Assembly (NCBI GenBank): GCA_964408485.1
Contig: CAYOZJ010000002.1
Location: 69,235 to 133,234 of the forward strand
Length of the DNA: 64,000 nucleotides
Direction: 5' to 3'
Source of the DNA: an uncultured Gammaproteobacteria bacterium
GTDB lineage: Bacteria; Patescibacteriota; Microgenomatia; Levybacterales; UBA12049
The notes under the pieces are model-generated. The model searched no databases. It saw nothing but the letters and a program-made list of their open reading frames with translations, and was not told where the DNA came from. Made by a program: the position numbers and the translations under genes. Positions within the stretch are counted from its first letter, which is position 1, and the number at the start of each line of letters is the position of its first letter. Positions 2,663-57,817 of the stretch are shown one piece after another.

Positions 2663-3700
2663 ATGATTCGTGTTGCAATTAATGGATACGGAAGAATTGG
2701 AAGAGTAGCACACAGAATCATGCTTCTTAAACATCCTGAGCTTGATGTCGTTGCAATCAATGCAGGGACTTCAACAGATTTGAAGGGTTGGATGTATCTT
2801 CTTAAGTATGATTCTAATTATGGAATATTGGATGGTGTTGACTTAGATATACGACTAAATACAGATAAGGCAAATCCCAACCTTCTCGGCAAGCTTCTGG
2901 TAAATAAAAAAGAAATTTCTGTTTTTTCCCAGAAAGACCCGAGTCTTCTTCCATGGGGGGATTTAAAAGTAGATGTTGTTATTGAATCCACGGGACACTT
3001 TCTTACGAAAGAAGATGCAAAAGCCCATATATCTGCAGGAGCAAAAAAGGTTGTTATTTCAGCTCCAGCTAAGGACGACACGCCTCCATACGTTGTATCC
3101 GTGAATGAAAAAGAGTATCGGGGAGAACAGATTGTGAGTAATGAATCATGTACAACCAATTGTATTACACCAGTTGCCAAAATAATGGAGGATGCATTTG
3201 GTGTAGAGAAAGCAATGATGACAACAATTCATGCATACACATCAGACCAGGAGCTTCAAGACGGGGGACACCATGATTATCGTCGGGCACGGGCTGCTGC
3301 AAAAAATATTGTCCCAACAACAAGCGGGGCGACTCTCGCTGCAGCACAAGTAATCCCTTCCCTTAAGGGTATATTCAATGGCCTTGCTCTTCGTGTACCT
3401 GTATCAACAGGATCGCTTTCTGATTTTACTTTCCTAGTAAAGAAAAATACAACAGTTGAGCAGGTAAATACTGCATTTAAAAAAGCAGCAAAAAATCCAA
3501 CATTTAAGGGAATTTTAGAAGCAACAAATGAGCCACTTGTTTCCTCAGATATTATTGGGAATTCTCATTCATCTATTGTTGACTTATCACTGACGCAAGT
3601 TGTGGGAGGGAATATGGTCAAAGTAATTGCGTGGTATGACAATGAATGGGGATATGCGCACAGATTGGTAGAATTAACGAGTGAAATTGGAGGAAAATAA
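2663..3700 (+). CDS. gap: glyceraldehyde-3-phosphate dehydrogenase
   Basis: MIRVAINGYGRIGR NAD-binding N-terminus, catalytic SCTTNC, C-terminal WYDNEWGY. Confidence 0.95.
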   Translation: MIRVAINGYGRIGRVAHRIMLLKHPELDVVAINAGTSTDLKGWMYLLKYDSNYGILDGVDLDIRLNTDKANPNLLGKLLVNKKEISVFSQKDPSLLPWGDLKVDVVIESTGHFLTKEDAKAHISAGAKKVVISAPAKDDTPPYVVSVNEKEYRGEQIVSNESCTTNCITPVAKIMEDAFGVEKAMMTTIHAYTSDQELQDGGHHDYRRARAAAKNIVPTTSGATLAAAQVIPSLKGIFNGLALRVPVSTGSLSDFTFLVKKNTTVEQVNTAFKKAAKNPTFKGILEATNEPLVSSDIIGNSHSSIVDLSLTQVVGGNMVKVIAWYDNEWGYAHRLVELTSEIGGK

Positions 3701-4293
3701 TGGACACAAATCCCGCAGACTTACGATTCCGCTTAATTTCCGTTTCCGGAAGAATTGCCTCAGGGTCAACTACGTTAGCCAAAAAACTCGCTCATGCACT
3801 ACGGTGGCAGCGGATGGAAGGTGGAGATATTTTCTGGGAAGCTGTACGGAGTAAATTAGGTCTTGATGTTAAGGATACAGGACTTCGCCCAGATGAGGAA
3901 GATTTAGCATTTGAAGCAATGCAAAAAGAAATTCTTACCACACGGGACCATATGGTTGTTGAAAGTAAACTTGCGGGGTTTGTTGCAAAGGATTTGAAAG
4001 ACGTGTTTCGGGTATTGGTTATTTGTGTTGATCCAGCAGGTGCAGATCAAACTAATATCCGTATCGATAGGCTTGTAAATCGCGAGCACATGAGTATTGC
4101 AGAGGCAAAAGAAGAAGTATTAGTAAGGGAGCAATCAGACGTTGATAAATGGAGACGTCTCTATGCTCCAACAGAGGCAGATTGGACATTTTGGAATGAG
4201 AAATATTACGACTTAGTTATAAATACGTATGCTCATGATCCAGACGAAGTCTTAGCTCTTGTTTTAGAAGCAGTTGGATATACTACGCAATAA
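3700..4293 (+). CDS. archaeal-type cytidylate (CMP) kinase family protein
   Basis: P-loop ISVSGRIASGSTTLAKKLA. Overall length and layout resemble ~190-aa archaeal CMK. The ATG overlaps the gap stop (ATAATGG). Confidence 0.55.
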   Translation: MDTNPADLRFRLISVSGRIASGSTTLAKKLAHALRWQRMEGGDIFWEAVRSKLGLDVKDTGLRPDEEDLAFEAMQKEILTTRDHMVVESKLAGFVAKDLKDVFRVLVICVDPAGADQTNIRIDRLVNREHMSIAEAKEEVLVREQSDVDKWRRLYAPTEADWTFWNEKYYDLVINTYAHDPDEVLALVLEAVGYTTQ

Positions 4294-4341
4294 AACTTCT
4301 TCTTGCAGAAAATAGCTATTGGTATTAGGATAGGAAAGCGT

Positions 4342-4908
4342 ATGAAGAAAATAATACTTATCTCGCTTCTTCTCTTCTTTTTTGTCTTTCCTAAAAATAG
4401 TATTGTTACGGCAGATGACAGCAGTATGAGCGCAACAGCGTCTCCAACAGCAGTGGTTGTTAATGACTATACACTTCCATACCCAGGTCTCTTACCAGAT
4501 AATCCCTTATATGTTATTAAGACAATTCGAGATAGAATTGTTACTTTTTTTATTTCTGATCCATTGAAGAAATCGTCATTTAACTTGCTTCAATCAGACA
4601 AGCGACTTGAAGCATCGTGGTATCTTTTGAAAAAGGATGTCAAGAATAATAGTCTTGCTCTTTCAACACTCTCTAAATCCACAACGTACTTTTCGCTATC
4701 TATTGACGAGTTACATAAAGCGCAGGGAAGCGGGGAAGACATAAATGCGCAGATAGATAGTATAAAAAATGCCATTGCCAAACATGTTGCTGTTGCCCAT
4801 GAAATGCTTTCTCTTCCAGGACTTGGAAATAAAAATGGATTTGCTCAGGAAGTAAAACGACTTGATAATATTCAGAAAACTGTATCGGGGTTTAGCCCTG
4901 AGGAGTAG
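4342..4908 (+). CDS. secreted protein, DUF5667-like
   Basis: Signal peptide MKKIILISLLLFFFVFP. The motif YTLPYPGLLPDNPLYVIK is, from memory, characteristic of DUF5667 proteins common in CPR genomes. The ORF track starts at 4303, but 4342 follows a better SD-like GGAAAG. Confidence 0.5.
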   Translation: MKKIILISLLLFFFVFPKNSIVTADDSSMSATASPTAVVVNDYTLPYPGLLPDNPLYVIKTIRDRIVTFFISDPLKKSSFNLLQSDKRLEASWYLLKKDVKNNSLALSTLSKSTTYFSLSIDELHKAQGSGEDINAQIDSIKNAIAKHVAVAHEMLSLPGLGNKNGFAQEVKRLDNIQKTVSGFSPEE

Positions 4909-8024: not shown

Positions 8025-8222
8025 TGCATTCATAGCAGTATGCAGTAAGAATTATGGGCATATTGCGTAGAGCATAAAGCATAATTCATATATTTATACA
8101 TTGGGCAAACACCGTGTAATTCGGTGGAAGTGCCGCTACTGTAAATCCAGAAAACCATGTATAAATCATTCTCGAGCAAGAACGTTTTTGGGCACGTCCT
8201 TCTCGAGAGAGAGGGATTTTTT

Positions 8223-11252: not shown

Positions 11253-11303
11253 CGGAGACAACATGCAATCCTGAGCGTAGTCGAAGGATCTCCTCCTTAT
11301 TTT

Positions 11304-14681: not shown

Positions 14682-14754
14682 GGGTCGGTAGCTCAGTTGG
14701 TTAGAGCACTTGTCTTATACACAGGCTGTCGGAGGTTCGAGTCCTCCCCGACCC
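14682..14754 (+). tRNA. tRNA-Ile (anticodon UAU)
   Basis: Cloverleaf folded by hand: acceptor GGGTCGG/CCGACCC, D-arm GCTC..GAGC, anticodon stem CTTGT/ACAGG with loop CTTATAC (U33, anticodon TAT, A37), T-arm GGAGG TTCGAGT CCTCC, discriminator A. No encoded CCA. Confidence 0.75.
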
Positions 14755-14760
14755 ACTGGA

Positions 14761-14795: not shown

Positions 14796-14874
14796 GGTTG
14801 TGGACTCGAATGCCGGACTGAAGCGTAGCTGAAGGAGGCGGGGTCGCGAGGCGACAAAGTTGAACTTGTGACCG

Positions 14875-14899
14875 AGTCCTGCCCGACCCACTAACACCT
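14875..14899 (+). repeat. direct repeat of the tRNA-Ile 3' end (att-like)
   Basis: CGAGTCCTGCCCGACCCACT versus tRNA CGAGTCCTCCCCGACCCACT: about 20 nt with one mismatch, 125 bp downstream of the tRNA. Confidence 0.5.
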
Positions 14900-14942
14900 C
14901 ATTGACTCCTGAGCCTACTAGGTGTATGATTTTTGCTTCTTT

Positions 14943-23253: not shown

Positions 23254-24657
23254 ATGAAGATAAGCGAATTACATACAAAACGAATTGCTATTTTGGGTCT
23301 TGGTGTAGAGGGATTAGCAACGGCACAATATTTTTTAGAACATAAGATTGCCTTTTCCATTATTGATGAAAAGTCATTTACCGAACTTTCTGAAGGAGGG
23401 GATTTAAAGAATGCTTTAGAAAAACTTAAAGAGAATACTATTCCACTCGTTTTGGGAGAAGTTCCCACAAAAGAGCAGCTAGCTCAGTACGATGTACTTG
23501 TAAGAGCACCTGGAATCTCTCTGAAGAAAGATTATCTGCGAGGATTTAGCGGTAGCATTACTTCTGCAACTAAGCTCTTTTTTGACAATTGCCCTGGGAA
23601 AATTATTGGTGTAACAGGGACAAAAGGAAAGGGAACAACCAGCACATTGATCTATGAAATGCTTAAAAGTGCAGGAATCGACGCATATCTTGGCGGCAAC
23701 ATAGGACTGCCTCCATTATCATTTTTGGATACAGTAGATGATCAATCTATTGTTGTTCTGGAGCTTTCTAGTTTTCAATTAGAAGACCTTCAAAAAAGTC
23801 CCCACATTAGTGTCATGCTTATGGTAACGCAGGAACACTTAGACGGTTTTGGAAATCAAAATTATCACAGCTCAATTCGTGAGTATGTTGATGCAAAAAG
23901 AAATATTGTCAGATTCCAAACAGCAGATGATATGGCAATTCTTAATACAGACTATCCTGCCACTACAGAATCAGCTGGTGTTACCTCGGCTCAGGTTGCG
24001 TGGGTGAGTAGATACAAGCCTGTTGGAACAGGGTGCTTTGTGAGAGACAATGAGGTAATTCTTCGCAGCAATAATCAGGAGACCAAAGTAATTGACGCAG
24101 CTGATATTTTTCTTCCTGGAGGACATAATTTAGAAAATATCTGTGCAGCAACTATGGCTGCGTATTTTGCAGGCGTTGATGTTGCTGAAATTGCATCAGT
24201 TCTCAAGACCTTTAAAGGCTTAGAACACCGGTTGGAGTTGGTTAGGGAGTTGGATGGTGTTAGATATTATGACGATTCTTTCTCAACGGTTCCTGAGACT
24301 GCTATTGCTGCAATTCAAGCATTTAGTAATCCAGAAATTTTAATCTTGGGGGGGTCAAGCAAGAAATCAGATTTTACTCAGCTTGGAAAGCTTATTAGCG
24401 AAACACCAAATATAAAAGCAATTATTGGGATTGGAGTAGAATGGCCAGTCATAGAATCAAGAATCAAGAATCAAGAATCAAGAATAAAAATAGTGACAGG
24501 GTTAACAACCATGAAAGATATTGTTGAGACAGTCAGGAAATTAAGTGAGCCAGGAGATGTTGTGCTTCTTTCTCCAGCCTGCGCATCATTTGGGATGTTT
24601 AAGAATTACAAAGACAGAGGCAATCAGTTTAAAGAGCAAGTAAACAAATTAACCTAA
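23254..24657 (+). CDS. murD: UDP-N-acetylmuramoylalanine--D-glutamate ligase (carries in-frame repeat insertion)
   Basis: ILGLGVEGLATAQYF plus GVTGTKGKGTTSTLIYEML. Contains an inserted ESRIKNQESRIKI peptide from a GAATCAA tandem repeat. Confidence 0.9.
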   Translation: MKISELHTKRIAILGLGVEGLATAQYFLEHKIAFSIIDEKSFTELSEGGDLKNALEKLKENTIPLVLGEVPTKEQLAQYDVLVRAPGISLKKDYLRGFSGSITSATKLFFDNCPGKIIGVTGTKGKGTTSTLIYEMLKSAGIDAYLGGNIGLPPLSFLDTVDDQSIVVLELSSFQLEDLQKSPHISVMLMVTQEHLDGFGNQNYHSSIREYVDAKRNIVRFQTADDMAILNTDYPATTESAGVTSAQVAWVSRYKPVGTGCFVRDNEVILRSNNQETKVIDAADIFLPGGHNLENICAATMAAYFAGVDVAEIASVLKTFKGLEHRLELVRELDGVRYYDDSFSTVPETAIAAIQAFSNPEILILGGSSKKSDFTQLGKLISETPNIKAIIGIGVEWPVIESRIKNQESRIKIVTGLTTMKDIVETVRKLSEPGDVVLLSPACASFGMFKNYKDRGNQFKEQVNKLT

Positions 24658-32752: not shown

Positions 32753-33658
32753 ATGCGAAAATTACAGCCTGAAAGAGTAAGAGAATTCCGCAGAAAAATA
32801 CTTTCCTGGTATAAAAAGAATAAGCGTGATTTACCTTGGCGCCATCCTTCGCTAAAGCTTCGGAATGGTAAAGGACGTGATCCTTATGCAATTCTTGTTT
32901 CAGAAGTAATGCTTCAACAAACACAAGTGAGTCGAGTCATTGAAAAATATAATGAGTGGATAAAAGCATTTCCAACAATTAGGAAATTGGCAAAAGCATC
33001 TTTTAGAGATATCTTGTCTCGTTGGTCAGGGCTTGGATACAACAGGCGTGCTTTATATCTGCAGCAGCTTGCCCAGGATATTGTGAAAAATCACCATGGA
33101 AAGTTTCCGCAGAATGAAAAAGAGCTACAAAAGCTTCCTGGCATTGGGGAATATACAGCTAGAGCAATTCTTTGTTTTGCATTTAATGAGCAAGTTGCTG
33201 TAGTGGATACAAATATCAGAAAAGTCATACTTACAAATTTTTTCTCTGAGCGAGCGAGGCGAGTCGAAGAGCCTTCGACAGGCTCAGGCAAAAAAGGTTC
33301 TGGGCAAGCCAGAATGACAGATAAAGAAATCCAAGAAATTGCAAATCAGCTTCTTCCAAAAGGAAAGGCCTATGAGTGGAATCAGGCGCTTATGGACTAT
33401 GCATCGAGTGAGTTAAAGCAGGAAAAAATACCAATTCCTAAGCAGTCAAAATTTAAAGATTCAGATAGGTATTATCGTGGAGAGATTTTGCGTATGCTTC
33501 TTACTAATCCTGCCTATTCATTTGAAGAGGTACAAAAACATTTTGTAGAAATCAAAAAAGAAATTTCTTCGCAGCGCCTTGAGAGAATAGTTCAAACATT
33601 ATATAAGGATAGATTTATTGAATATACAAAATCCGTTATAGTTCTGAGAAAGAATTAA
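32753..33658 (+). CDS. HhH-GPD DNA glycosylase (MutY/Nth family) with in-frame repeat insertion
   Basis: WYKKNKRDLPWR, PYAILVSEVMLQQTQV and LPGIGEYTARAILCFAFNEQVAVVDTNIRKV (HhH-GPD). Contains inserted FFSERARRVEEPSTGSGKKGSGQARMTDK. Confidence 0.8.
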   Translation: MRKLQPERVREFRRKILSWYKKNKRDLPWRHPSLKLRNGKGRDPYAILVSEVMLQQTQVSRVIEKYNEWIKAFPTIRKLAKASFRDILSRWSGLGYNRRALYLQQLAQDIVKNHHGKFPQNEKELQKLPGIGEYTARAILCFAFNEQVAVVDTNIRKVILTNFFSERARRVEEPSTGSGKKGSGQARMTDKEIQEIANQLLPKGKAYEWNQALMDYASSELKQEKIPIPKQSKFKDSDRYYRGEILRMLLTNPAYSFEEVQKHFVEIKKEISSQRLERIVQTLYKDRFIEYTKSVIVLRKN

Positions 33659-36294: not shown

Positions 36295-37320
36295 TTGTCA
36301 TGGTATACTACAAAGTACATGAAAAAGTTACTTCTGATTGATGGAAATGCCATTTTACACCGTGCATTTCATGCCTATCCACCAGTATTTTCTGACAAAG
36401 AGGGTAATCCTACAAATGCTATTTATGGCTTTTATGCAATGCTTTTAAAAGTTATGGAGGAGGTAAAACCAGATTTACTCACCATTTGCTTTGATCAAGG
36501 TGCGCCGACTTTTCGCATGAATATGTATGCTGGGTATCATGCCAATAGGCCAAAAATGCAGGACACATTGGGAGTACAGGTCGAGCCCTTGCGTGAGTCT
36601 TTGCGTAAAATAGGAATTCCCGTTGAAGCAATCGATGGATATGAAGCAGATGATTTAATTGGGACATTATCTCATCAAGCGTCAAGCGTAAGGCGTAAAG
36701 GGGAAAGTTTGGAAACAATAATCCTAACAGGTGACAGGGATCTTTTGCAGTTAATTAACGAGCATACCAAAGTTCTTATGCCAATAACAGGAATTACGAA
36801 GTCTGTCTTAATGGATGAAGGAGCAGTTGAGGCAAAATACGGCATAAAGGCAAGTCAGGTAATTGATTACAAAGCCTTAGTTGGCGACCCGTCTGATAAC
36901 TATCCAGGTGTTGGGGGAATAGGTCCTAAAACAGCGGCAACACTTCTTAAAGAGTGGGAAACATTGGAGAATTTGTATACCCATTTGGGAGATATAAAAC
37001 CTGAGTTGAGTCAAAAATTAGCTCAAGATGCAGAGCAGGCAATGCTATGCAAGAAGTTGGCAACCATTCAGCTAGACGTACCTGTTCATTTAGATATAAA
37101 GAAAGCAGATGTAGACAATTTTTCTCTGGAAAAGTTTTTGGATATTTTCGAGCACTTCAATATTCACTCATTGGTTAAGAGGCTTAGTCTAGCGCTAGGA
37201 AGTGAAGCACCTATAACACGAAGCGAGACGAAGCAATCTAGTTTAAAGAAAGATTCTGGACAAGCCAGAATGACGAAAGAAGAAAAGAAGAAAGAGGATA
37301 GTCAACTAGAGCTACTTTAG
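36295..37320 (+). CDS. 5'-3' exonuclease (stand-alone Pol I 5'-nuclease/FEN domain) with repeat-derived C-terminal tail
   Basis: LLLIDGNAILHRAFHA and GDRDLLQL, H3TH region. The C-terminal ~40 aa (SETKQSSLKKDSGQARMTKEEKKKED) derive from repeat DNA. Confidence 0.85.
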   Translation: MSWYTTKYMKKLLLIDGNAILHRAFHAYPPVFSDKEGNPTNAIYGFYAMLLKVMEEVKPDLLTICFDQGAPTFRMNMYAGYHANRPKMQDTLGVQVEPLRESLRKIGIPVEAIDGYEADDLIGTLSHQASSVRRKGESLETIILTGDRDLLQLINEHTKVLMPITGITKSVLMDEGAVEAKYGIKASQVIDYKALVGDPSDNYPGVGGIGPKTAATLLKEWETLENLYTHLGDIKPELSQKLAQDAEQAMLCKKLATIQLDVPVHLDIKKADVDNFSLEKFLDIFEHFNIHSLVKRLSLALGSEAPITRSETKQSSLKKDSGQARMTKEEKKKEDSQLELL

Positions 37321-39446: not shown

Positions 39447-40727
39447 ATGCCTAGAATAGCCCTGGTTCACGATTATATTAAAGAATACGGTGGAGCGGAA
39501 AGGGTACTAGAGACTTTGCATGAAATGTATCCCAATGCACCTGTATTTACCCTAGTATATTGTCCAAAATTCTTAGGACCACATAAAGATAGATTTAAGA
39601 ATTGGGATATCCGCACATCATTTCTTCAGTCTATCCCTTTTAAAGAAAAATTTATTAGCATCTTTCGGCTTTTTGCCCCATTTATTTTTCCATTTTTCAA
39701 CTTTGCTGGGTACGATGTAATCATTGTAAGCGCAACAGGGGCATATAGTCCCAACGTAGTTGGGACAAGAGGTAAGAAGGAAGAGGTAAGAAGTAAGGAA
39801 AGTGACCATACGCCATACGCCATACGCCATACGCCGTATCACATCTGCTACTGCCACACGCCGCCCAGATATTTGTATGGATACGCAACAGCTAGAGAAC
39901 TAAAAAAGAATTCTCTTATTCGATTATTGGCAGAATGGATGAATAAATGGCTTGTGCGAGTAGACAAAAAGTCCAGTAAAAATGTGGATTTGTATATTGC
40001 CAATTCAGAAGAAGTACGAGCACGAATTAAGAAATTTTATAACAAAGATGCAATTGTTGTGTATCCACCAGTTGATGTTCCTTCAGTGTCATTCCTGCGA
40101 AGGCAGGAATCCAGGAAAGGAACTGGATCCCGGATCGGAGTCCGGGATGACAATTTTTATCTAGCAGGCGGGCGTCTTGCCAGGCCAAAGCATTTCGATT
40201 TAATCATCAAGGTAGCAAATGAATTAAAGTTGTCCCTCAAGATTTTTGGGAAAGGATTTGCAGGGTATGGAGAAGAGCTGTATGATTTGGCAAATAGACT
40301 ACAGCAAGCAGACTACAGTAAAGAAGCTGTAGTCGGTAGTCCGAAAGCTGTAAGCGTTATTACGTTTTTGGGAGAAGTAACAGATGAAGAAAAAATACAT
40401 CTTATGTCCGGTGCTAAAGCATTTATTATGAGTAGTGAAGATGAGGATTTTGGCATAACACCAGTTGAGGCAATGGGGGTTGGGACACCGGTGATTGCAT
40501 ATAAGAGTGGTGGACTTAAAGAAACAGTTATTGATGGCAAGACAGGAGTATTTTTTGACATGTTATCTGCAGAAAGTCTAATTGGGGCAATAAAGAAGTT
40601 TGAAGCCCTTCGACAAGCTCAGGGTAAAAGACTGTCTGAGAATTGTATTGCGCAAGCGCAAAAATTTAGCAAAGAGAACTTTGAAAAAGGAATTCGTTCT
40701 GTCATCTCTAAAATCTTGTCATCCTGA
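39447..40727 (+). CDS. glycosyltransferase family 4 (GT1-fold) with multiple in-frame repeat insertions
   Basis: MPRIALVHDYIKEYGGAERV N-terminus and C-terminal EDFGITPVEAMGVGTPVIA (E-x7-E region). Inserted peptides EEVRSKESDHTPYAIRHTPYH and SFLRRQESRKGTGSRIGVRDD. The stop lies inside a GTCATCCTGAG repeat. Confidence 0.8.
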   Translation: MPRIALVHDYIKEYGGAERVLETLHEMYPNAPVFTLVYCPKFLGPHKDRFKNWDIRTSFLQSIPFKEKFISIFRLFAPFIFPFFNFAGYDVIIVSATGAYSPNVVGTRGKKEEVRSKESDHTPYAIRHTPYHICYCHTPPRYLYGYATARELKKNSLIRLLAEWMNKWLVRVDKKSSKNVDLYIANSEEVRARIKKFYNKDAIVVYPPVDVPSVSFLRRQESRKGTGSRIGVRDDNFYLAGGRLARPKHFDLIIKVANELKLSLKIFGKGFAGYGEELYDLANRLQQADYSKEAVVGSPKAVSVITFLGEVTDEEKIHLMSGAKAFIMSSEDEDFGITPVEAMGVGTPVIAYKSGGLKETVIDGKTGVFFDMLSAESLIGAIKKFEALRQAQGKRLSENCIAQAQKFSKENFEKGIRSVISKILSS

Positions 40728-42776: not shown

Positions 42777-43997
42777 ATGATCCTCAGGTCAATTCTTCTT
42801 CAGCATTTTCGCAATTATACCCAGGAAAAGTTTGATTTTTCAGAAACTCTCACTCTTATTATTGGAGTAAATACTGCCGGTAAAACCAATCTTTCTGAGG
42901 CAATATATTTACTTGCAACAGGGAAGAGTTTTAAGGCAGGTAATGATACATTTATGATTGCTTTTGGACAAGAGATTGCAAGGGTGGGAGGATTGCTGGA
43001 AGATGTCATCCCCGACCAGATCGGGGATCCAGGAAAAGAACTGGATTCCCGCTTTCGCGGGAATGACAGTAAAAAAAAGGATGACGGTTTGGACAAGACT
43101 AAAATAGAAGTAGTTATCGCCAGTCCTCAGGCAACTGGAGGGAGATTTAGCAAGAAATTTCTTATAAATGGTGTTGGAAAATCGCGGAATAGTTTGCGAG
43201 GTATGCTCCCAATTGTCCTTTTCCGGCCTGAAGAATTGGACATTATTATTGATGGACCAAGTCTCAGGCGCGCATTTCTTAATGAAGTACTTGAGCAGGC
43301 AGATAAAGAATATGCCCAAGCATTATCTGTCTTCGAACGGTCTCTTAGGCAGCGCAATGCGCTTCTTCGTATAGCTCAGGAGACTGGAAAACGAAATAGT
43401 GAGCAATTTGATTATTGGGACGAGCTTCTTATTGAGAGTGGGCAGACAATTACACAAAAGCGTGAAGAATTTTTGGTATTTATCAATTCATCCACTCATG
43501 ATATTTTTCCTTTACAGACTTTTTTCGATAAGAGTATTATTTCTCGCGAACGGTTAGATGGATATGAGATGGCAGAAGTCGGGGCAGGGGTGACCCTTGT
43601 AGGGCCTCACAGAGATGATTTCTTTGTGAACATGGAATATCCTGGTTTTAATCCCAACCCTCATCCCAGCTCGCCGAGGCAAGCTGACCTTCTCCCAAAA
43701 GGAGAAGGAGAACAAGGTGATATCCACTACGTGGATATACGATTTTTCGGTTCGAGGGGGCAGCAGAGACTTGCAGTGCTCCAGTTAAAAATGCTCCAAA
43801 TACAGTATTTGGAAAAGAAACTAGGAGTATTGCCACTTCTTATCTTGGATGATATTTTTTCTGAATTAGATAGTAACCATATTCAGCTTGTTTTGGATAA
43901 CGTGAAAGGATGCCAAATCATTCTAACCACAACGCATAGGGAGTTTATTCCACAAAAGGTATTACGTGAGGCTAGTGTGGTAGAATTAGAGCGATAA
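42777..43997 (+). CDS. recF: DNA replication and repair protein RecF with in-frame palindromic-element insertions
   Basis: MILRSILLQHFRNY, Walker A GVNTAGKTNLSEAIY and C-terminal LILDDIFSELD. Inserted VIPDQIGDPGKELDSRFRGNDSKKKDDG. Confidence 0.85.
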   Translation: MILRSILLQHFRNYTQEKFDFSETLTLIIGVNTAGKTNLSEAIYLLATGKSFKAGNDTFMIAFGQEIARVGGLLEDVIPDQIGDPGKELDSRFRGNDSKKKDDGLDKTKIEVVIASPQATGGRFSKKFLINGVGKSRNSLRGMLPIVLFRPEELDIIIDGPSLRRAFLNEVLEQADKEYAQALSVFERSLRQRNALLRIAQETGKRNSEQFDYWDELLIESGQTITQKREEFLVFINSSTHDIFPLQTFFDKSIISRERLDGYEMAEVGAGVTLVGPHRDDFFVNMEYPGFNPNPHPSSPRQADLLPKGEGEQGDIHYVDIRFFGSRGQQRLAVLQLKMLQIQYLEKKLGVLPLLILDDIFSELDSNHIQLVLDNVKGCQIILTTTHREFIPQKVLREASVVELER

Positions 43998-44093: not shown

Positions 44094-44972
44094 ATGCAAC
44101 AATTTGACATAAAACAACTGAAACAGCTTTACATTCCACCAGCTGGATCTCATAAAGGGGACAATGGAAAGGTTATGGTTATTGGCGGAAGTCAGCTTTT
44201 TCATGCTGCATCACTTTGGTCTTTGGAAATTGCATCAAAAATTGTAGATATGGTTTTTTACTCATCAGTTGATGCAAACAATGCACTCGTTGAAAAAGAA
44301 AAGGAAGCATTTAGAAATGGGATTATTGTTCCAAGAAATAAAATTGAAGATTACATTGCAGAGGCAGATAGCGTACTTATTGGGCCAGGATTACCAAGAG
44401 AGAATGGCTACGAGGCAGGCGATGACGATACAAAAATTCTCACCGAAAAACTTCTTAAAAAATATCCCAATAAGCGATGGGTAATTGATGGTGGTAGTTT
44501 GCAGGTGATTAACCCTGACCTTATTCCACAAAATGCTATTCTTACGCCACATCATCAAGAATTTGAAAGACTGTTTGGAAAGCGTCAAGCGTCAAGCGTC
44601 AAGCGTAAAGGAGAGAAAGAGATTGCCGCGGTCGCTAAAGACTCCCTCGCAATGACGGTTGGGGAGATGGCAAAGAAATATCACTGTATTGTTTTACTGA
44701 AAGGTCCAGAAGATGTTGTTTGTTCGGAAAATGAATGTGTAAGAGTTCCGGGAGGTAATGCAGGTATGACAAAAGGTGGAACAGGAGATGTGCTTGCAGG
44801 GCTTACAGCAGCTTTATATTCCCAAAACGCTGACGCATTCTTAGTAGCAACTTCTGCAAGCTATATCAATAAAAAAACAGGTGAGTCTCTTTTTGAAAAA
44901 CAAGGCTATTACTTTAACTCAAGTGATTTAGTGAAGGAAATCCCAGGAGTCATGAAAGAATTACTGCTCTAA
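44094..44972 (+). CDS. ADP-dependent NAD(P)H-hydrate dehydratase / YjeF C-terminal carbohydrate-kinase-like domain protein
   Basis: GDNGKVMVIGGSQLFHAASL and GGTGDVLAG. Carries the insertion KRQASSVKRKGEKEIAAVAKDSLAMTVGE. Confidence 0.75.
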   Translation: MQQFDIKQLKQLYIPPAGSHKGDNGKVMVIGGSQLFHAASLWSLEIASKIVDMVFYSSVDANNALVEKEKEAFRNGIIVPRNKIEDYIAEADSVLIGPGLPRENGYEAGDDDTKILTEKLLKKYPNKRWVIDGGSLQVINPDLIPQNAILTPHHQEFERLFGKRQASSVKRKGEKEIAAVAKDSLAMTVGEMAKKYHCIVLLKGPEDVVCSENECVRVPGGNAGMTKGGTGDVLAGLTAALYSQNADAFLVATSASYINKKTGESLFEKQGYYFNSSDLVKEIPGVMKELLL

Positions 44973-45354: not shown

Positions 45355-46407
45355 ATGTATACCCCAACCTACACAATAAGCAATACAATCCTTCGTAATA
45401 TTGGTCTTATTGAGGCTGCAAAACAGGTAATTGATAGCGCTCCACTTCTTCCGTACTATGAAAAGAAATTTCGCGACGATGCTATGGTAAGAGCTGTCCA
45501 TTATGGCACGCATATTGAAGGAAACGAACTGTCACTCAATCAGGCAGAAAAAGTTTTGTCTGGTCAGATTGTTGACGCACGCGACCGAGATATTCAAGAG
45601 GTCTTAAATTATCGAAAGGTTATGGAGATGATCGGTTCATCGGAAATCGGGAATCGGGAATCGGGAATTGACGAAGAACTTATTTTTAAACTCCATAAGC
45701 TTACAGTCACTAAAGTTTTACCCGAAGAGCAGTCTGGTAATTATCGAAAAACAAAGGTAGTTATTCGCAATAGCCGCAGTGCAGAAGTAGTATTTACGCC
45801 GCCTTCTCCTGAGGAAGTAGCTGGACAAATGAGTGATTTTATTGCATTTATACAAACTCAGTCAGGTCAAGATATTCATCCAATATTGAAATCTGGAATT
45901 GTTCATTATGAATTCGTGAGAATTCATCCGTTTGTCGATGGAAATGGTCGGGTAGCACGGGCACTCTCGACTCTTATTCTTTTTTTGGAAGGGTATGACA
46001 TTCGACAGTTTTTCTCTTTGGAAGAATACTTTGATAAAGATGCTCTCAGCTATTACGAGGCACTGCAAAGTGTTGGGAAAAATAATGGAGACGTGACAAA
46101 TTGGCTTGAGTATTTTACTCATGGTCTTGCCTATGAGTTGGGAAGAATCCGGGAAAGAGTAGAGCATGTATCTGTAGATAATAGGCTTAAGCAGCGACTT
46201 GGTGGCAAGCCAATGATGCTGACAGACAGGCAGTTGAGGATTGTTGAATATATTCAAGAAACAGGTTTTCTGCAAAATCAAGCATTTAAAGAATTATTTC
46301 CAATGATTTCTGAAGACGCAGTGCTTTTGGATTTAAAAGAACTAGTTAAAGCTGGTCTTATTAAGAAATCAGGTGTCACTAAGGGCGCAAGGTATGTGAT
46401 GAGCTAA
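45355..46407 (+). CDS. Fic family protein (AMPylase-type) with C-terminal wHTH
   Basis: Fic motif HPFVDGNGRVARAL. Contains inserted IGNRESGI repeats from GAATCGG heptamers. Confidence 0.85.
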   Translation: MYTPTYTISNTILRNIGLIEAAKQVIDSAPLLPYYEKKFRDDAMVRAVHYGTHIEGNELSLNQAEKVLSGQIVDARDRDIQEVLNYRKVMEMIGSSEIGNRESGIDEELIFKLHKLTVTKVLPEEQSGNYRKTKVVIRNSRSAEVVFTPPSPEEVAGQMSDFIAFIQTQSGQDIHPILKSGIVHYEFVRIHPFVDGNGRVARALSTLILFLEGYDIRQFFSLEEYFDKDALSYYEALQSVGKNNGDVTNWLEYFTHGLAYELGRIRERVEHVSVDNRLKQRLGGKPMMLTDRQLRIVEYIQETGFLQNQAFKELFPMISEDAVLLDLKELVKAGLIKKSGVTKGARYVMS

Positions 46408-47730: not shown

Positions 47731-49521
47731 ATGACCTTTGCGAAATTAGCCTCGTATTTTGAAAAATTAGAAGCAACTTCCTCCCGTTTAGAGCTTATCC
47801 GTATTCTCTCAGAACTCTTCAAAGAAATAAAAACTCCAGATGAAATAGAAAAGGTATGTTATTTGGTTCAGGGTCGTATTGCGCCATTTTTTGAAGCAAC
47901 AGAAATCGGAATGGCAGAACGGACTGTGGCACAGTCCGTTGCTACAGCATTTAATGTCGAAAAAGAGAAAGTCTTAAAAGAATATAGTAAGCGTGGAGAT
48001 TTAGGGTTGGTTACGTATGAGCTTGCGCAAGAAGTAAGAAGTAAGAATTATGAATCAAGAATAACCATAGATGAGGTGTTTGAAACTTTAATAAAAATAG
48101 CAAAGACTAGTGGGGAAGGAACTGTTGAAAAACGACTAACATTATTAACAGATCTTTTGCAAAAAGTAGACGCACTTTCAGCAAAGTTTCTTGTACGCAT
48201 TCCACTAGGTAATCTTCGTTTGGGAATTGGTGACCCAACTGTTTTAGATGCACTCGCGACAGTAAAATTGGGAGATAAAACCCAGCGACATTATTTAGAA
48301 GATGCATACAATAGGACATCTGACTTAGGACTTATTGCAAAAACTCTTTGGTCAGAAAAAAGCGCAATGAAAGCATTGGGTGCAGTCGAAAAATTAGAAG
48401 TAACAGTTGGTAAGCCAATTCGAAGCGAATTGTGCGAGCGTCTTCCTAGTCCTGAAAAAACAATAGAAAAAATGGGGACAGTGGATTCACAGTTTAAATA
48501 CGATGGATTTCGCGTACAAATTCATAAAAATGGAAATGAAATCTCGCTTTTTTCTCGTAATTTAGAAAATATGACCCATATGTTTCCAGAGCTTATAGAG
48601 GGAGCCAAGAGACAAATTAAAGCGCGTAGCGCAATTCTGGATAGCGAAGCATTAGCATACATACCTGAGTCTGAAGAATTTTTGCCTTTCCAGGAGACAA
48701 CAAAACGAAGACGTAAGCATAATATAGAAGAAACAATGGCCAAGCTTCCACTTAAGTCATTTGTTTTTGACATTTTGTATAAAGATGGCAAGTCACTTAT
48801 TGGCGAACCTTTAGAAAAGCGTTTGGAGATTTTGTCAAAAACCCTTCGGCCAGCTCAGGGCAAGCAGTTTAACGATAGTGTTCTTTTTCCAGCAGATACT
48901 AAAAAGATTTCTGATGCAAAGGTGTTATCTCTTATGCTTGATGACGCAATTTCTAAAGGCTTAGAGGGAATAGTAGTAAAGAAATTGAATAGTCTTTACG
49001 AAGCAGGCGCGCGCAATTTTAACTGGGTAAAGCTAAAGCGTAACCAGTCTGGTGAGTTAACAGATACGGTTGACTGTGTGATTTTAGGATACATTTTTGG
49101 CAAAGGAAAGCGAACAGCATTTGGCGCAGGAGCATTATTGGTTGGTGTGTATGATAAAGCATCAGATAGCTTTGTAACAGTAAGTAAGATTGGAACAGGA
49201 TTAACTGATGAGGAGTGGAAAAGTATTAAGGAAAGGACAAAAGGATTAGAACTTTCTCATAAGCCAGCTCGGGTGAGCTCTATTATAGAACCAAGTGTTT
49301 GGGTAAAGCCTGAGATTGTTATAGAGGTCTTGGCAGATGAGATTACAAGAAGTCCTATTCATACAGCAGGAGCTACTTTGGAGAACGGAAAAGTCGTTGA
49401 GCCAGGATATGCTCTCAGATTTCCACGGTTAGTTAACTTTCGGGATAAAGATAAAAAATCAGAAGATGCAACGGATGTGAAAGAGTTGATTGAAATGTAT
49501 AAGAGTCAAGGAAAGAAGTAG
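47731..49521 (+). CDS. ATP-dependent DNA ligase
   Basis: Adenylation motif KYDGFRVQIH (KxDG), OB domain. Inserted heptamer-derived QEVRSKNYESRI. Confidence 0.85.
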   Translation: MTFAKLASYFEKLEATSSRLELIRILSELFKEIKTPDEIEKVCYLVQGRIAPFFEATEIGMAERTVAQSVATAFNVEKEKVLKEYSKRGDLGLVTYELAQEVRSKNYESRITIDEVFETLIKIAKTSGEGTVEKRLTLLTDLLQKVDALSAKFLVRIPLGNLRLGIGDPTVLDALATVKLGDKTQRHYLEDAYNRTSDLGLIAKTLWSEKSAMKALGAVEKLEVTVGKPIRSELCERLPSPEKTIEKMGTVDSQFKYDGFRVQIHKNGNEISLFSRNLENMTHMFPELIEGAKRQIKARSAILDSEALAYIPESEEFLPFQETTKRRRKHNIEETMAKLPLKSFVFDILYKDGKSLIGEPLEKRLEILSKTLRPAQGKQFNDSVLFPADTKKISDAKVLSLMLDDAISKGLEGIVVKKLNSLYEAGARNFNWVKLKRNQSGELTDTVDCVILGYIFGKGKRTAFGAGALLVGVYDKASDSFVTVSKIGTGLTDEEWKSIKERTKGLELSHKPARVSSIIEPSVWVKPEIVIEVLADEITRSPIHTAGATLENGKVVEPGYALRFPRLVNFRDKDKKSEDATDVKELIEMYKSQGKK

Positions 49522-49874: not shown

Positions 49875-51374
49875 ATGGTTGATGTTGTTGCAGATTTACA
49901 TCTGCATTCTCGTTTCTCCAGAGCGGTTAGTCCTCAAATGACTCCTCCCACAATGGCACAATTTGGAGACCAGAAAGGGATAGATCTTTTGGCAACAGGA
50001 GACTGGACACATCCGGTATGGTTTCGGGAAATCAGCAACTTTCTCACAGAAGCAGAAGAAGGACTGTATAAAATCAAGAATCCAACTCCCCAAAATGAAA
50101 AGACACGATTTCTTCTTTCTGTAGAAATTGCCTCTATTTATTCCCAAGGAGGGAAGGGAAGAAGGATTCACAACTTAGTATTTGTTCCATCCTTCGAAGT
50201 GGCAGCAAAAGTAAATAAAGAGCTGATAAAACGCGGATTTAATTTATCTTCTGACGGGAGGCCAATCATAGGATTTTCCTCAAAGAATTTACTTTCACTT
50301 CTCCTTGAAGTAGATGAGCGGTGTCTTCTTATTCCCGCTCATGTCTGGACGCCATGGTTTGGCATTTACGGACAGATGTCTGGGTTTCAAAGTCTTGCGG
50401 AAGCATTTGAAGAATTAGCACCAAAGATTTATGGAATAGAGACAGGTCTTTCAAGTGATCCGGAGATGAATTGGCAAGTTGATGAGCTAAAGACAAGGTC
50501 AATTCTTAGCTTTTCTGATGCACATTCTCCTGCGAAAATGGGGCGAGAAGCAACGGTTTTTCGCTTGGACAGCTTGTCTTATGAGAATATTCGTCAAGCA
50601 ATAATGGCGCCAAGCCTTCGTTCCGTCATTGCGAGCAAAGCGAAGCAATCTAATATAAATAAGGAGAAGATTGCCACGTCGCAAGCTCCTCGCAATGACA
50701 ATGTTAATAAAGTACTCTACACCATAGAATTTTATCCAGAAGAGGGGAAGTACCATTATTCAGGCCATAGAAATTGCGGAATTACCATGACGCCACAAGA
50801 GCAAGCAGCAGCGCATAATATTTGTCCTGTATGTAAAAGGTCTCTTACCGATGGGGTTATGAGACGTGTTCAGGAACTCGTAGAAAAGGACCCTTCGGCA
50901 TCGGTTCGGCAAGCTCACGACGAGGGCTCAGGGCAAGGTCCCTTTGGAAGTCATACGCCTAATAAAAGTGGCCTTGTCTGGATAACAGACCCTAAAGAAA
51001 ATCGTCCACCATTTGTCAAAATAGTACCGCTCCAGGAAATAATTAGTGAGGCAATTGGGAGTCCTTTTGCAAGCCCGAAGGTAAAAGTAATCTTCGATAT
51101 GCTCTGTAAAGACGGACTCTCTGAATTTAATGTACTCCTTAAATTGCCCTTACCAGATATTGAGCGAATAAGTCTTAGTATTACTTCAAAAGAATTTGCT
51201 GAAAAAATTACTGATGGAATAAAGAAAGTACGTGCAGAGCAAATTGTGATTAAGCCAGGATACGACGGTGTATTTGGGGTAGTAAAGATTTGGAGTGATG
51301 AGAATGACAGTGAAAACCCTTCGACTTCGCTCAGGGAAAAAGATACTGAAGAGCAGATTGGATTAGAGTTTTAG
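49875..51374 (+). CDS. Endonuclease Q (EndoQ)-like PHP-domain nuclease with zinc finger
   Basis: DLHLHSRFSRAVSPQMT PHP N-terminus, LIPAHVWTPWFGIYG, SFSDAHSPAKMGREAT, KYHYSGHRNCGI and CPVCKRSL zinc finger, RPPFVKIVPLQEII. All are collinear with archaeal EndoQ as I recall it. Confidence 0.7.
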   Translation: MVDVVADLHLHSRFSRAVSPQMTPPTMAQFGDQKGIDLLATGDWTHPVWFREISNFLTEAEEGLYKIKNPTPQNEKTRFLLSVEIASIYSQGGKGRRIHNLVFVPSFEVAAKVNKELIKRGFNLSSDGRPIIGFSSKNLLSLLLEVDERCLLIPAHVWTPWFGIYGQMSGFQSLAEAFEELAPKIYGIETGLSSDPEMNWQVDELKTRSILSFSDAHSPAKMGREATVFRLDSLSYENIRQAIMAPSLRSVIASKAKQSNINKEKIATSQAPRNDNVNKVLYTIEFYPEEGKYHYSGHRNCGITMTPQEQAAAHNICPVCKRSLTDGVMRRVQELVEKDPSASVRQAHDEGSGQGPFGSHTPNKSGLVWITDPKENRPPFVKIVPLQEIISEAIGSPFASPKVKVIFDMLCKDGLSEFNVLLKLPLPDIERISLSITSKEFAEKITDGIKKVRAEQIVIKPGYDGVFGVVKIWSDENDSENPSTSLREKDTEEQIGLEF

Positions 51375-53858: not shown

Positions 53859-53930
53859 TTGGGTCATCCTGGCTTGTCCAGGATCTAGATTCTGGATGCG
53901 CTTTGCTTACCAGAATGACAGGAGAATTTT

Positions 53931-54494
53931 ATGTCTAAGATTAAGCAGCAAAAACAGAAAAAAACATCTTTTTTTACCTCTCCCAGGTGGGCGTATGTTG
54001 GGTCATTTGTTTTATCTGTTGTCCTTATTTGGCTTGCGTTTCATTTTCGTACTCGACTCGAACACTTTAGGTCTTTAGGACTTTTGGGAATCTTTTTAAT
54101 TAACCTTTTTGCTTCGGCAACTATTTTTCTTCCTGCACCTGGTATTGCCAGTGTTGTTGCTGGGGGAGCATTGTACCCACCACTTCTTGTAGGGCTTGTC
54201 GCGGCACTAGGGGCGTCTTTCGGAGACATGCTGTCTTATTTTCTGGGAAGGGCAGGGACACATGTTGTCCTTAACCATACGCAGTATAAATTTTATGAAA
54301 AGTTTAAAAAGTTCTTTTCGCGCTTCGCAGGACCATTAATTTTCCTTTTTGCTTTTATTCCTAATCCTGTTTTTGATGCCATTGGTATTTTGGCAGGAGC
54401 AACAGAATACCCACCAATACGCTATTTCTTGATTATGTTTGGAGGAAGGTTTGCAAGAAATATACTCTTGGCATTGTTGGGGGCAAGACTTTAG
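53931..54494 (+). CDS. DedA/VTT-domain family membrane protein
   Basis: FLPAPGIASVVAGGALYPP...GASFGDMLSYFLGR typical of DedA/YqaA. Confidence 0.6.
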   Translation: MSKIKQQKQKKTSFFTSPRWAYVGSFVLSVVLIWLAFHFRTRLEHFRSLGLLGIFLINLFASATIFLPAPGIASVVAGGALYPPLLVGLVAALGASFGDMLSYFLGRAGTHVVLNHTQYKFYEKFKKFFSRFAGPLIFLFAFIPNPVFDAIGILAGATEYPPIRYFLIMFGGRFARNILLALLGARL

Positions 54495-57687: not shown

Positions 57688-57817
57688 GTGTCATCCTGAG
57701 CAAGCTAGAGGATATATTCTTTCCCGACTCGGGACTAGGTTCGCAGAACCGTTGCACACGTTCAGAATGACAATAGGACTGGATCCCGGATCGGAGTCCG
57801 GGATGACAAATTAATAT

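Follow-up and report, generated by a model that had tools for sequence, protein, structure and literature searches.

How a block of palindromic DNA comes to lie inside the reading frame of a MutY-like DNA glycosylase is the question raised by segment 33246–33318 of the DNA studied here, a 64,000-nucleotide stretch (the window) of contig CAYOZJ010000002.1 from an uncultured bacterium that GTDB places in the Levybacterales (Patescibacteriota). A sequence-only reading of this stretch had described the segment as an in-frame palindromic insertion sharing modules with other genes, and the quoted sequence is indeed located at these positions of the + strand, in frame within the open reading frame (ORF) of the glycosylase. 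Over its 73 bases the segment is made up of three short palindromic hairpin-forming repeat units, designated A, B, and C. Very probably these are repetitive extragenic palindromic (REP) units of the CGTC/TGTC type copied into a surface loop at which the glycosylase tolerates them, with the encoded peptide a by-product.

The host ORF matches the Pfam families HhH-GPD (1e-17) and HHH, and its best solved relatives are MutY-type adenine DNA glycosylases (8uuc_A, E 2.9e-39). Residues E51 and D152, which we take to be the MutY-type catalytic Glu and Asp, occupy invariant columns of the homologue alignment and are both kept in the window protein. The segment differs from its surroundings in composition, with a G+C content of 57.5% as compared to 35.9% in the remainder of the gene, and translation across it would give tryptic peptides such as VEEPSTGSGK and MTDKEIQEIANQLLPK. 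In a single-strand DNA fold of the segment (−15.3 kcal/mol, z −2.4) the nested palindromes described earlier are seen, CTGAGC/GCTCAG (6 bp) enclosing GTCGAAG/CTTCGAC (7 bp), with a separate TTCTGG/CCAGAA hairpin 3' of the nested pair. This third module had been parsed as TTCTGG-GCAA-GCCAGAATGAC; it should be read as the hairpin TTCTGG-GCAAG-CCAGAA, in which the loop is 5 nt long, with TGAC following the stem.

The nested arrangement of outer and inner palindromes arises because the module CCTGAGC-N4-(T/C)CGAAGG is present twice, as units A and B, in inverted orientation and tail to tail. Unit A has an expanded loop and lacks the GTCAT tag, and the 17-nt core of unit B is also found in locus L087, followed there by A instead of C. 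A pattern scan located further copies of this module in other genomes and at window positions 11270–11288, 40606–40623, 48842–48859, and 51317–51335, the copy at 48842 residing in an ATP-dependent DNA ligase gene. The same inverted pair as in A+B (...CCTGAGCCTGTCGAAG-AG-CCTTCGACAAGCTCAGG...) appears in three unrelated metagenome contigs of 64–72% G+C (L180, L186, and L216), and a metagenome scan with the junction 17-mer GTCGAAGAGCCTTCGAC returned nearly exclusively chance matches in high-GC DNA and no additional A+B orthologue.

Unit C is the component shared with a second gene. Its coding-strand reading is ...SGQARMT, and the 21-mer TTCTGGRCAAGCCAGAATGAC is found at 33298–33318 (+) and, with agreement at 20 of 21 positions, at 37254–37274 (+) within the 5'-nuclease gene, as the sequence-only reading had proposed. 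Pairwise alignment of the two genic sites gave a local score of 49, the maximum among 1971 random window segments being 26, and their ungapped identity including flanks is 33/43. A third, intergenic copy with two mismatches lies at 53863–53883 (−), so that three matches are observed in the window where 0.01 are expected from shuffled sequences. The peptide SGQARMT is common to both proteins and is read in the same frame, from KKGSGQARMTDKE in the glycosylase and KKDSGQARMTKEE in the nuclease.

Comparison with homologues identifies the segment as an insertion. The closest solved homologue, 8uuc_A, aligns (phmmer) with an 18-residue gap at exactly that place, and in an alignment of 41 homologues (A1, whose few named members are Levybacteria, Microgenomates, and other Patescibacteria) 25 residues of the window protein stand opposite about six in many orthologues, between ...VVDTNxRKVILTxFF and xKEIQxIAxQLLP. 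An AlphaFold model of the glycosylase, computed from this alignment (mean predicted local distance difference test score, pLDDT, 87.7; predicted TM-score, pTM, 0.84) places residues 169–189 in a predicted coil between helices 153–168 and 190–200, with pLDDT falling below 50 at residues 177–184. Approximately half to 60% of some 104 scorable homologues (120 listed) carry a repeat-derived insert in this loop, and among those listed the inserts derive from units of several types and are read, at each end, in two or more frames, giving peptides such as VILS..KD.., VIPD..DSRFRGND, RHSG..SRI..DSGQARMT, RHCEERSD..SLAMT, HPERSEGS.., and MLKQVQHD. Whole GTCAT...ATGAC elements occupy the site in L002 and L003. 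In the orthologues P0012 and P0018 the peptides at this site (site 1) read RHSGGVQNL and HHAGGVQHL, respectively (S to A, N to H), and would imply, at the codon level, a compensatory change of a T-A stem pair of the unit into G-C. Since the frames differ, which divergence cannot produce, the loop has either been hit repeatedly or is the sole place where hits survive.

Judged from its orthologues, the composite insert of the window is old, as an orthologous insert is present in L126 (protein P0002, 62% protein identity) and a shortened, decayed version in L127. The unit in the 5'-nuclease gene looks like a recent gain. The closest nuclease orthologues (at most 85% identity, alignment A2) have a shorter linker without the unit, more distant ones carry other repeat-derived peptides in the same linker, and comparison with L124 at the DNA level reveals a 33-nt gap in a linker too diverged for a clean junction. 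In this stand-alone 5'-3' exonuclease the QLELL end, which may presumably serve as a sliding-clamp-binding motif, is strictly conserved, and the preceding linker is hypervariable and lysine-rich, a second hot spot for repeat-derived peptides (ISRQARDDKK, PKQVRDDKKK, and RHSGK...SWTSQDD in orthologues). The glycosylase itself has a second length-variable site just past DLPWR, occupied by three residues in approximately 60% of aligned orthologues and by RVPYDTHLKQR, QIPFGTSLQQR, or longer stretches in the others; in the window protein it is possibly an older, decayed repeat-derived insert.

Modules were also said to be shared with other genes, and this is borne out by a covariance model (R1) built from 50 units of other genomes and run against the window with filters off. 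At a cut-off of E<0.01 the model finds nine units in the 64-kb window, at 37250–37275, 53862–53887, 33294–33319, 43042–43068, 53886–53920, 40124–40152, 57780–57808, 43004–43031, and 40087–40113, six of which lie inside four genes, identified by Pfam as the glycosylase, the 5'-3' exonuclease, a RecF-like (SMC_N) gene, and a glycosyltransferase family 4 (GT4) gene (Table 1). Complete copies consist of (C/T)GTC, AT with an arm of 5–6 nt, a loop of 4–6 nt, the complementary arm with AT, and then C..., and the GC-rich hairpin units of the window are bounded by GTCAT...ATGAC. Units are mostly paired in inverted orientation with their tags outward, sometimes around a central hairpin that results in a cloverleaf fold (DNA folds of 40083–40156, z −5.6, and 43003–43072, z −5.8). 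The top-scoring unit resides in the variable C-terminal linker of the exonuclease gene (36295–37320), ahead of its conserved end. The dimer in the glycosyltransferase gene reads TGTC-ATTCCTGC-GAAG-GCAGGAAT-CCAG ... CTGGAT-CCCGGATCGGAGTCCGGG-ATGACA and encodes SFLRRQESRKGTGSRIGVRDD, and the intergenic dimer that belongs to the subfamily of unit C reads GTCATCCTGG-CTTGT-CCAGGAT-CTAG-ATTCTGG...CCAGAATGAC and stands directly upstream of a ribosome-binding site and an ATG at 53931.

Table 1. Positions in the window of the glycosylase gene, the units of its insert, and related repeat units. Bit scores and E-values are from covariance model R1.
Feature	Position	Strand	Basis
MutY-like HhH-GPD DNA glycosylase gene, 301 aa, host of the insertion	32753..33658	+	ORF list, Pfam, PDB relatives
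Second length-variable glycosylase site, HPSLKLRNGKGR, just past DLPWR	32843..32878	+	Alignment A1, low-pLDDT residues 31–40
Unit A, degenerate CCTGAGC-N4-TCGAAGG module (TCTGAGC-GAGCGAGGCGAG-TCGAAGAG)	33245..33271	+	Pattern scan
Approximate net insertion, ~18 aa, RRVEEPSTGSGKKGSGQA (borders approximate)	33258..33311	+	Comparison with 8uuc_A (phmmer), alignment A1, low pLDDT
Unit B, second, oppositely oriented module copy (CCTGAGCCTGTCGAAGG on the minus strand)	33272..33288	-	Sequence
Unit C, TGTC-tagged REP unit TGTC-ATTCTGG-CTTGC-CCAGAAC-C	33294..33319	-	29.8 bits, E 1.4e-5; hairpin in DNA fold
Top-scoring REP unit of the window, CGTC-ATTCTGG-CTTGT-CCAGAAT-CTT	37250..37275	-	44.5 bits, E 1.7e-9
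Canonical dimer in GT4 glycosyltransferase gene, tags outward	40087..40152	.	20.7 + 23.7 bits
Canonical dimer in RecF-like (SMC_N) gene 42777..43997	43004..43068	.	21.8 + 25.8 bits; Pfam
Intergenic dimer, unit C subfamily	53862..53920	.	38.8 + 24.7 bits
Intergenic unit between Fur-family and ZnuA-like genes	57780..57808	-	23.7 bits; Pfam of neighbours

This architecture is that of the CGTC-tagged REPs described by Di Nocera, De Gregorio & Rocco in 2013 (PMC3733652). As defined there, such a REP has an unpaired CGTC tag, often replaced by TGTC (CCTC being also accepted), a stem of 8–9 bp nearly always starting with AT, a loop of 4–5 nt, and a 3-nt tail that is mostly CCA; it forms mainly head-to-head dimers, has no associated transposase, and is in part intragenic, with numerous such copies in genes of replication and repair. 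The canonical units of the window agree with this description throughout. The paper equates R. conorii CGTC-1 and CGTC-4 with the Rickettsia palindromic elements (RPE) RPE-6 and RPE-4, respectively, and Neisseria CGTC-1 units with dRS3, reports CGTC-4 units in Wolbachia of Drosophila, and speculates on mutator phenotypes for REP-tagged repair proteins (PMC3733652). Set against this description, unit C has a TGTC tag (33316–33319, minus strand) and the unit at 37250–37275 a CGTC tag, and of 210 units in related loci 141 begin with TGTC and 51 with CGTC; units A and B are untagged, a module type not covered by that description. Canonical units, at 40087, 40124, 43004, 43042, and 57780, have 8-bp stems beginning with AT, as published, whereas the subfamily of unit C has a 7-bp stem (ATTCTGG), reduced in unit C itself to six Watson-Crick pairs by a broken first pair (G.T on the coding strand). 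Loops are 5 nt in unit C (CTTGC) and at 37250–37275 (CTTGT) and 4–6 nt in canonical window units, and the tail is CCA(G) in canonical units and CTT or CCT in the TCTGG subfamily, its first C being invariant in the 15 commonest tails, which account for 208 of the 210 units. The window elements likewise are dispersed and multi-copy, form dimers (40087/40124, 43004/43042, 53862/53886), and occur in frame within genes, often repair/replication or tRNA-related ones, although the partner of unit C in the segment is a different module pair and not a second tagged unit.

For the canonical units, matches beyond the window point to the same family. In BLAST comparisons the 43000–43072 dimer matches repeats, at 93–100% over 27–33 nt, of Sinorhizobium (54 records), Azospirillum lipoferum 4B, Neisseria gonorrhoeae (40 or more places in each record), Legionella, Cupriavidus, and Sphingopyxis, where the repeat lies inside ileS; the 40083–40156 dimer has matches at 88–96%, among them one to a Rickettsia endosymbiont. 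By these matches, the taxa hit by canonical dimers are mostly those in which CGTC families were defined. There is also resemblance at the peptide level, since R. conorii CGTC-1 yields SFLRKQES...DSRFRGND (PMC3733652), the window glycosyltransferase reads SFLRRQES...VRDD, and DSRFRGND appears in glycosylase orthologues. By its architecture, the segment is of the same kind as the CGTC/TGTC-tagged REP superfamily that includes Rickettsia RPE-4 and RPE-6 and Neisseria dRS3. The host phylum is not among the five named in the accessible part of PMC3733652, and no description of palindromic or MITE-like (miniature inverted-repeat transposable element) repeats in the candidate phyla radiation (CPR)/Patescibacteria was found in the searchable literature, so that this seems to be a known kind of repeat in a phylum and subfamily for which that literature holds no description.

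Other known systems resemble the segment to varying degrees. Among them are the Rickettsia palindromic elements of the RPE-1 type, reportedly presented by Ogata et al. in 2000, which are likewise palindromic selfish DNA; they lie in frame within housekeeping genes, are missing from the orthologues, and are encoded on loops compatible with protein function. The segment shares this profile, being stop-free, in frame, absent from orthologues, and in a predicted surface loop; however, RPE-1 is a single longer element, described in PMC3733652 only as longer palindromic insertions, unlike the window mosaic of 20–30 nt units. The link of the window units to the named RPE families is indirect, running via the published equation of CGTC-1 with RPE-6 and the SFLRKQES/SFLRRQES peptides. 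GTAG-type REPs and the REPIN-RAYT system are similar in their tagged hairpins, inverted doublets, and probable single-strand hairpin biology, and membership in this group was rejected since the window tag is (C/T)GTC rather than GTAG and the window has no RAYT. Bacterial MITEs are also short and non-autonomous, and complete copies of the window type have inverted ends (GTCATYCTGG...CCAGRATGAC), but the window elements are built of independent hairpin units that also occur singly and have no known parent insertion sequence (IS), and no flanking direct (target-site) duplication is seen in the window, L002, or L003, by which the MITE assignment was discarded. An Rfam scan of the segment, at gathering score and at a permissive E-value, matched no ribozyme, intron, or small RNA (sRNA) family. 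The best Rfam match among the repeat elements is that of the 43000–43076 dimer to RF02625 (WsnRNA46, Wolbachia sRNA 46), with 27.9 bits and E 0.01 against a gathering score of 65.3, a family that the segment itself does not match; we suspect that the WsnRNA46 locus of Wolbachia holds repeats of the same kind as the window dimers.

To our knowledge, no dedicated transposase of CGTC REPs is known. A tblastn search of the window with five RAYT/TIRYT sequences from the supplement of PMC3733652 found no Y1 transposase. Y1 genes (RAYT/TIRYT-like, HUH) are present in 4 of 119 repeat-selected loci (L007 3717–4388, L010 865–1605, L058 ~4120–4686, and L085 ~3184–3528), bordered on both sides by hairpin palindromes of their own, GTAG-tagged in L085 and of the ACAAGGTTCGACCTTGT type in L010, and in L058, which belongs to the same metagenome-assembled genome, a palindrome similar to that of L010 adjoins a unit. 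As these flanking palindromes differ from the units studied here, and the window lacks such a gene, a Y1 transposase is not supported as the mobilising enzyme.

The distribution of unit C is wide, and its genic copies are biased in reading frame; in Patescibacteria the unit is frequently located within housekeeping genes. An exact scan for TYCTGGRCAAGCCAGRATGAC, with one genome per species, returned at least 119 loci, those listed including within the Patescibacteria the Levy-, Davies-, Gottesman-, Roizman-, Shapiro-, Peri-, Berkel-, Howlett-, Gracili-, and Saccharibacteria and Paceibacterota, and elsewhere Nitrospirota/Thermodesulfovibrionales, uncultured Gammaproteobacteria, Bacteroidetes, Ignavibacteriaceae, and Desantisbacteria. 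The 21-mer occurs in just three viral contigs, and carriage of the units by phages was accordingly rejected. Among the matches listed, the usual context is the dimer GTCAT-TCnnn-CTTGT-nnnGA-ATC...GA-TTCTGG-ACAAG-CCAGA-ATGAC, and Nitrospirota copies are nearly all intergenic. Twenty-four of 127 listed matches are situated well within ORFs of 200 aa or more, the titled records being mostly Patescibacteria, and nine of these ORFs were assigned by Pfam to a family 2 (GT2) glycosyltransferase, ArgRS, UvrC, CysRS, UvrD, the CCA-adding enzyme, a FemAB protein, GMP synthase, and ATP-dependent DNA ligase. The UvrC gene of L017 (bacterium DBS2-1.bin86) contains three separate units, read as DSGQARMT, DSGQARMT, and DYGQARMT, and in L008 (Thermodesulfovibrionales) a unit lies inside a 921-aa ORF bearing a by-eye likeness to a restriction-modification methylase. 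The D/xSGQARMT frame is used by 16 of the 24 genic copies even though five of the six frames are open (P ~9e-7), a bias that would be expected if the inserts undergo translation and selection spares only readings that are hydrophilic and flexible. Glycosylase and nuclease would then share SGQARMT as a by-product, the same DNA unit being read in the most-permitted frame.

The course of events that we favour is therefore one in which non-coding multi-copy palindromes would have been copied into the glycosylase surface loop somewhere in the ancestry of the lineage, presumably by copying of single-stranded hairpin DNA. The insert would persist where its length is divisible by three, the reading frame is stop-free, and the peptide (...EEPSTGSGKKGSGQARMT) is hydrophilic, disordered, and located between two helices, three conditions under which the enzyme would tolerate it; such an insert is probably translated and near-neutral. 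A number of points weigh against this account. Translation of the insert and mobility of the units are predictions from sequence, and the insertion in the glycosylase is known from protein comparisons, no DNA-level pair of empty and filled sites having been obtained. Units A and B, being untagged, are tied to the CGTC family by architecture and association only. Unit C departs from the published description with a stem of 6–7 rather than 8–9 bp and a CTT rather than CCA tail, and neither it nor the whole 83-nt segment has a significant match (E ≥0.2) in the plasmid collection of cultivated taxa; for these reasons unit C is treated as a separate subfamily, at best a new one. A further objection concerns the conservation of A+B. 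The glycosylase gene of the window is 62% identical in nucleotides to that of L126, and only 43% at third codon positions, yet in a 15-codon stretch over A+B third-position identity is 0.93, the highest in the gene, in which the mean is 0.43 (P ~6e-7), and the two orthologous inserts agree at 45 of 48 positions of A+B (94%). Near-identity in an otherwise saturated gene is unexpected for neutral junk.

It is on this observation that the strongest alternative is founded, namely that the hairpins are functional DNA or mRNA elements under selection and the peptide is incidental, an explanation that overlaps with the copying of REP units and does not exclude it. Such hairpins might affect the stability or processing of mRNA, cause translational pausing, bind a protein, or act as a replication or supercoiling signal. 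In favour of this alternative, none of the three A+B differences from L126 touches a base that is paired in the nested stems of the centroid fold, an exact 21-mer is common to several phyla, and the hairpin of unit C, lost in L126 where 14 of 21 positions are identical, is kept in the window. Stems also covary: in 55 units chosen by flanks and loop alone, with units matched by the search pattern excluded, 47 have five of five Watson-Crick pairs in their variable arms, formed by seven different stems, where chance would give 0.1%. On the other hand, the insert is truncated and decayed in L127, as is unit C in L126, the insert is missing from many orthologues or replaced there by an unrelated one, the units lie at unrelated positions of unrelated genes, and no Rfam family is matched at gathering score. 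Moreover, the identity of A+B could be due to nucleotide-level constraint, to gene conversion involving other copies, or to a lateral patch of recent date. On balance we consider a selected function of the hairpins rather unlikely as the explanation of the segment.

A bolder form of this idea holds that intragenic hairpins are an active cross-phylum element family, kept in essential genes by selection or continual gene conversion, and exerting their effect through DNA or mRNA, perhaps by offering a handle to a single-strand DNA enzyme or by controlling expression of the host genes, with repair, replication, and tRNA-related genes as especial hosts. It is suggested by the combination of synonymous-site conservation in A+B, stem covariation, and identical 21-mers in distant phyla, and we regard it as distinctly doubtful. 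Neither the cross-phylum identity of units, nor the insertion hot spot, nor the synonymous-site conservation shows a new mechanism.

Adaptation at the protein level, in which the insert is a recruited linker or interaction peptide that alters glycosylase function, along the lines of the mutator speculation of Di Nocera et al., is very improbable. The strong bias toward one reading frame would suit such a module, as would the many repair and replication proteins among the hosts of units in the window and in other Patescibacteria (glycosylase, 5'-nuclease, RecF-like, DNA ligase, UvrC, UvrD), such hosts being noted in other phyla as well (PMC3733652). This is a raw list of repair genes, however, and CPR genomes are in any case rich in information-processing genes, while tRNA synthetases, GMP synthase, and glycosyltransferases are also among the hosts of the unit. 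Disorder is predicted for the insert (pLDDT <50), and its content, length, and frame vary among orthologues, many of which have none. Finally, a removed intervening sequence (a mini-intron or intein-like element), which the compact structure and inverted ends of complete copies (GTCAT...ATGAC) might call to mind, or a chance or assembly artefact, is hardly credible, given that frame bias and absence of stop codons argue for translation, 18 aa is far below intein size, ribozyme and intron families give no match, the independently assembled contig L001 encodes an identical protein, and the repeat statistics rule out chance.

Several further features of the window deserve mention. A 499-aa ORF with no Pfam match (49875–51374) contains several GC-rich repeat-like modules (50604–50700, 50886–50948, and 51301–51335), comprising TCGCAATGAC-type units with weak R1 scores (E 0.13–0.6), CCCTTCGG...GCTCAGGG, and CCCTTCGACTTCGCTCAGGG, and the 10-mer TCGCAATGAC is found at five window sites (22333, 38403, 44647, 50625, and 50690). 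Tandem repeats of period 7, in 3–5 copies, occur in coding regions at 24453–24485, 36677–36700, 39767–39835, 44580–44610, 45639–45668, and 48029–48062; examples are CCATACG (4.3 copies) in the GT4 gene, giving HTPYAIRHTPY, AAGCGTC (4.4 copies) in an NAD(P)HX dehydratase gene, and AAGCGTA (3.4 copies) in the 5'-nuclease gene, giving the residues SSVRRKGES that are extra relative to orthologues. Such repeats may represent another, second class of insertion that is kept in frame in this genome. Structured RNAs of the window include an AdoCbl-II riboswitch at 8093–8165 (+), with 44.3 bits and above its gathering score, and a tRNA-Ile with anticodon UAU at 14682–14756 (+), followed by a GC-rich, structured-looking stretch of about 100 nt (14802–14901) that ends ...CCCGACCCAC, resembling a tRNA 3' end, and may represent the remnant or a duplicate of a tRNA.

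Palindromic repeats that are read in frame have their place in textbooks as an oddity of Rickettsia. If units such as those described here are widespread in core genes of Patescibacteria, with hosts including the MutY-like glycosylase, the Pol I-type 5'-nuclease, RecF, DNA ligase, UvrC, UvrD, and tRNA synthetases, the phenomenon is not peculiar to intracellular Proteobacteria. It would account for part of the length variation and the low-complexity, GC-rich patches in CPR proteins, as well as for recurrent proteome peptides such as DSGQARMT, RHSG..SRI, and VILS..KD, segments that annotators could then mask. Such insertions would also show, as experiments of nature, which loops of conserved enzymes can accept additional sequence, and the many recent, polymorphic copies in small genomes would make the spread of CGTC-type units more tractable.

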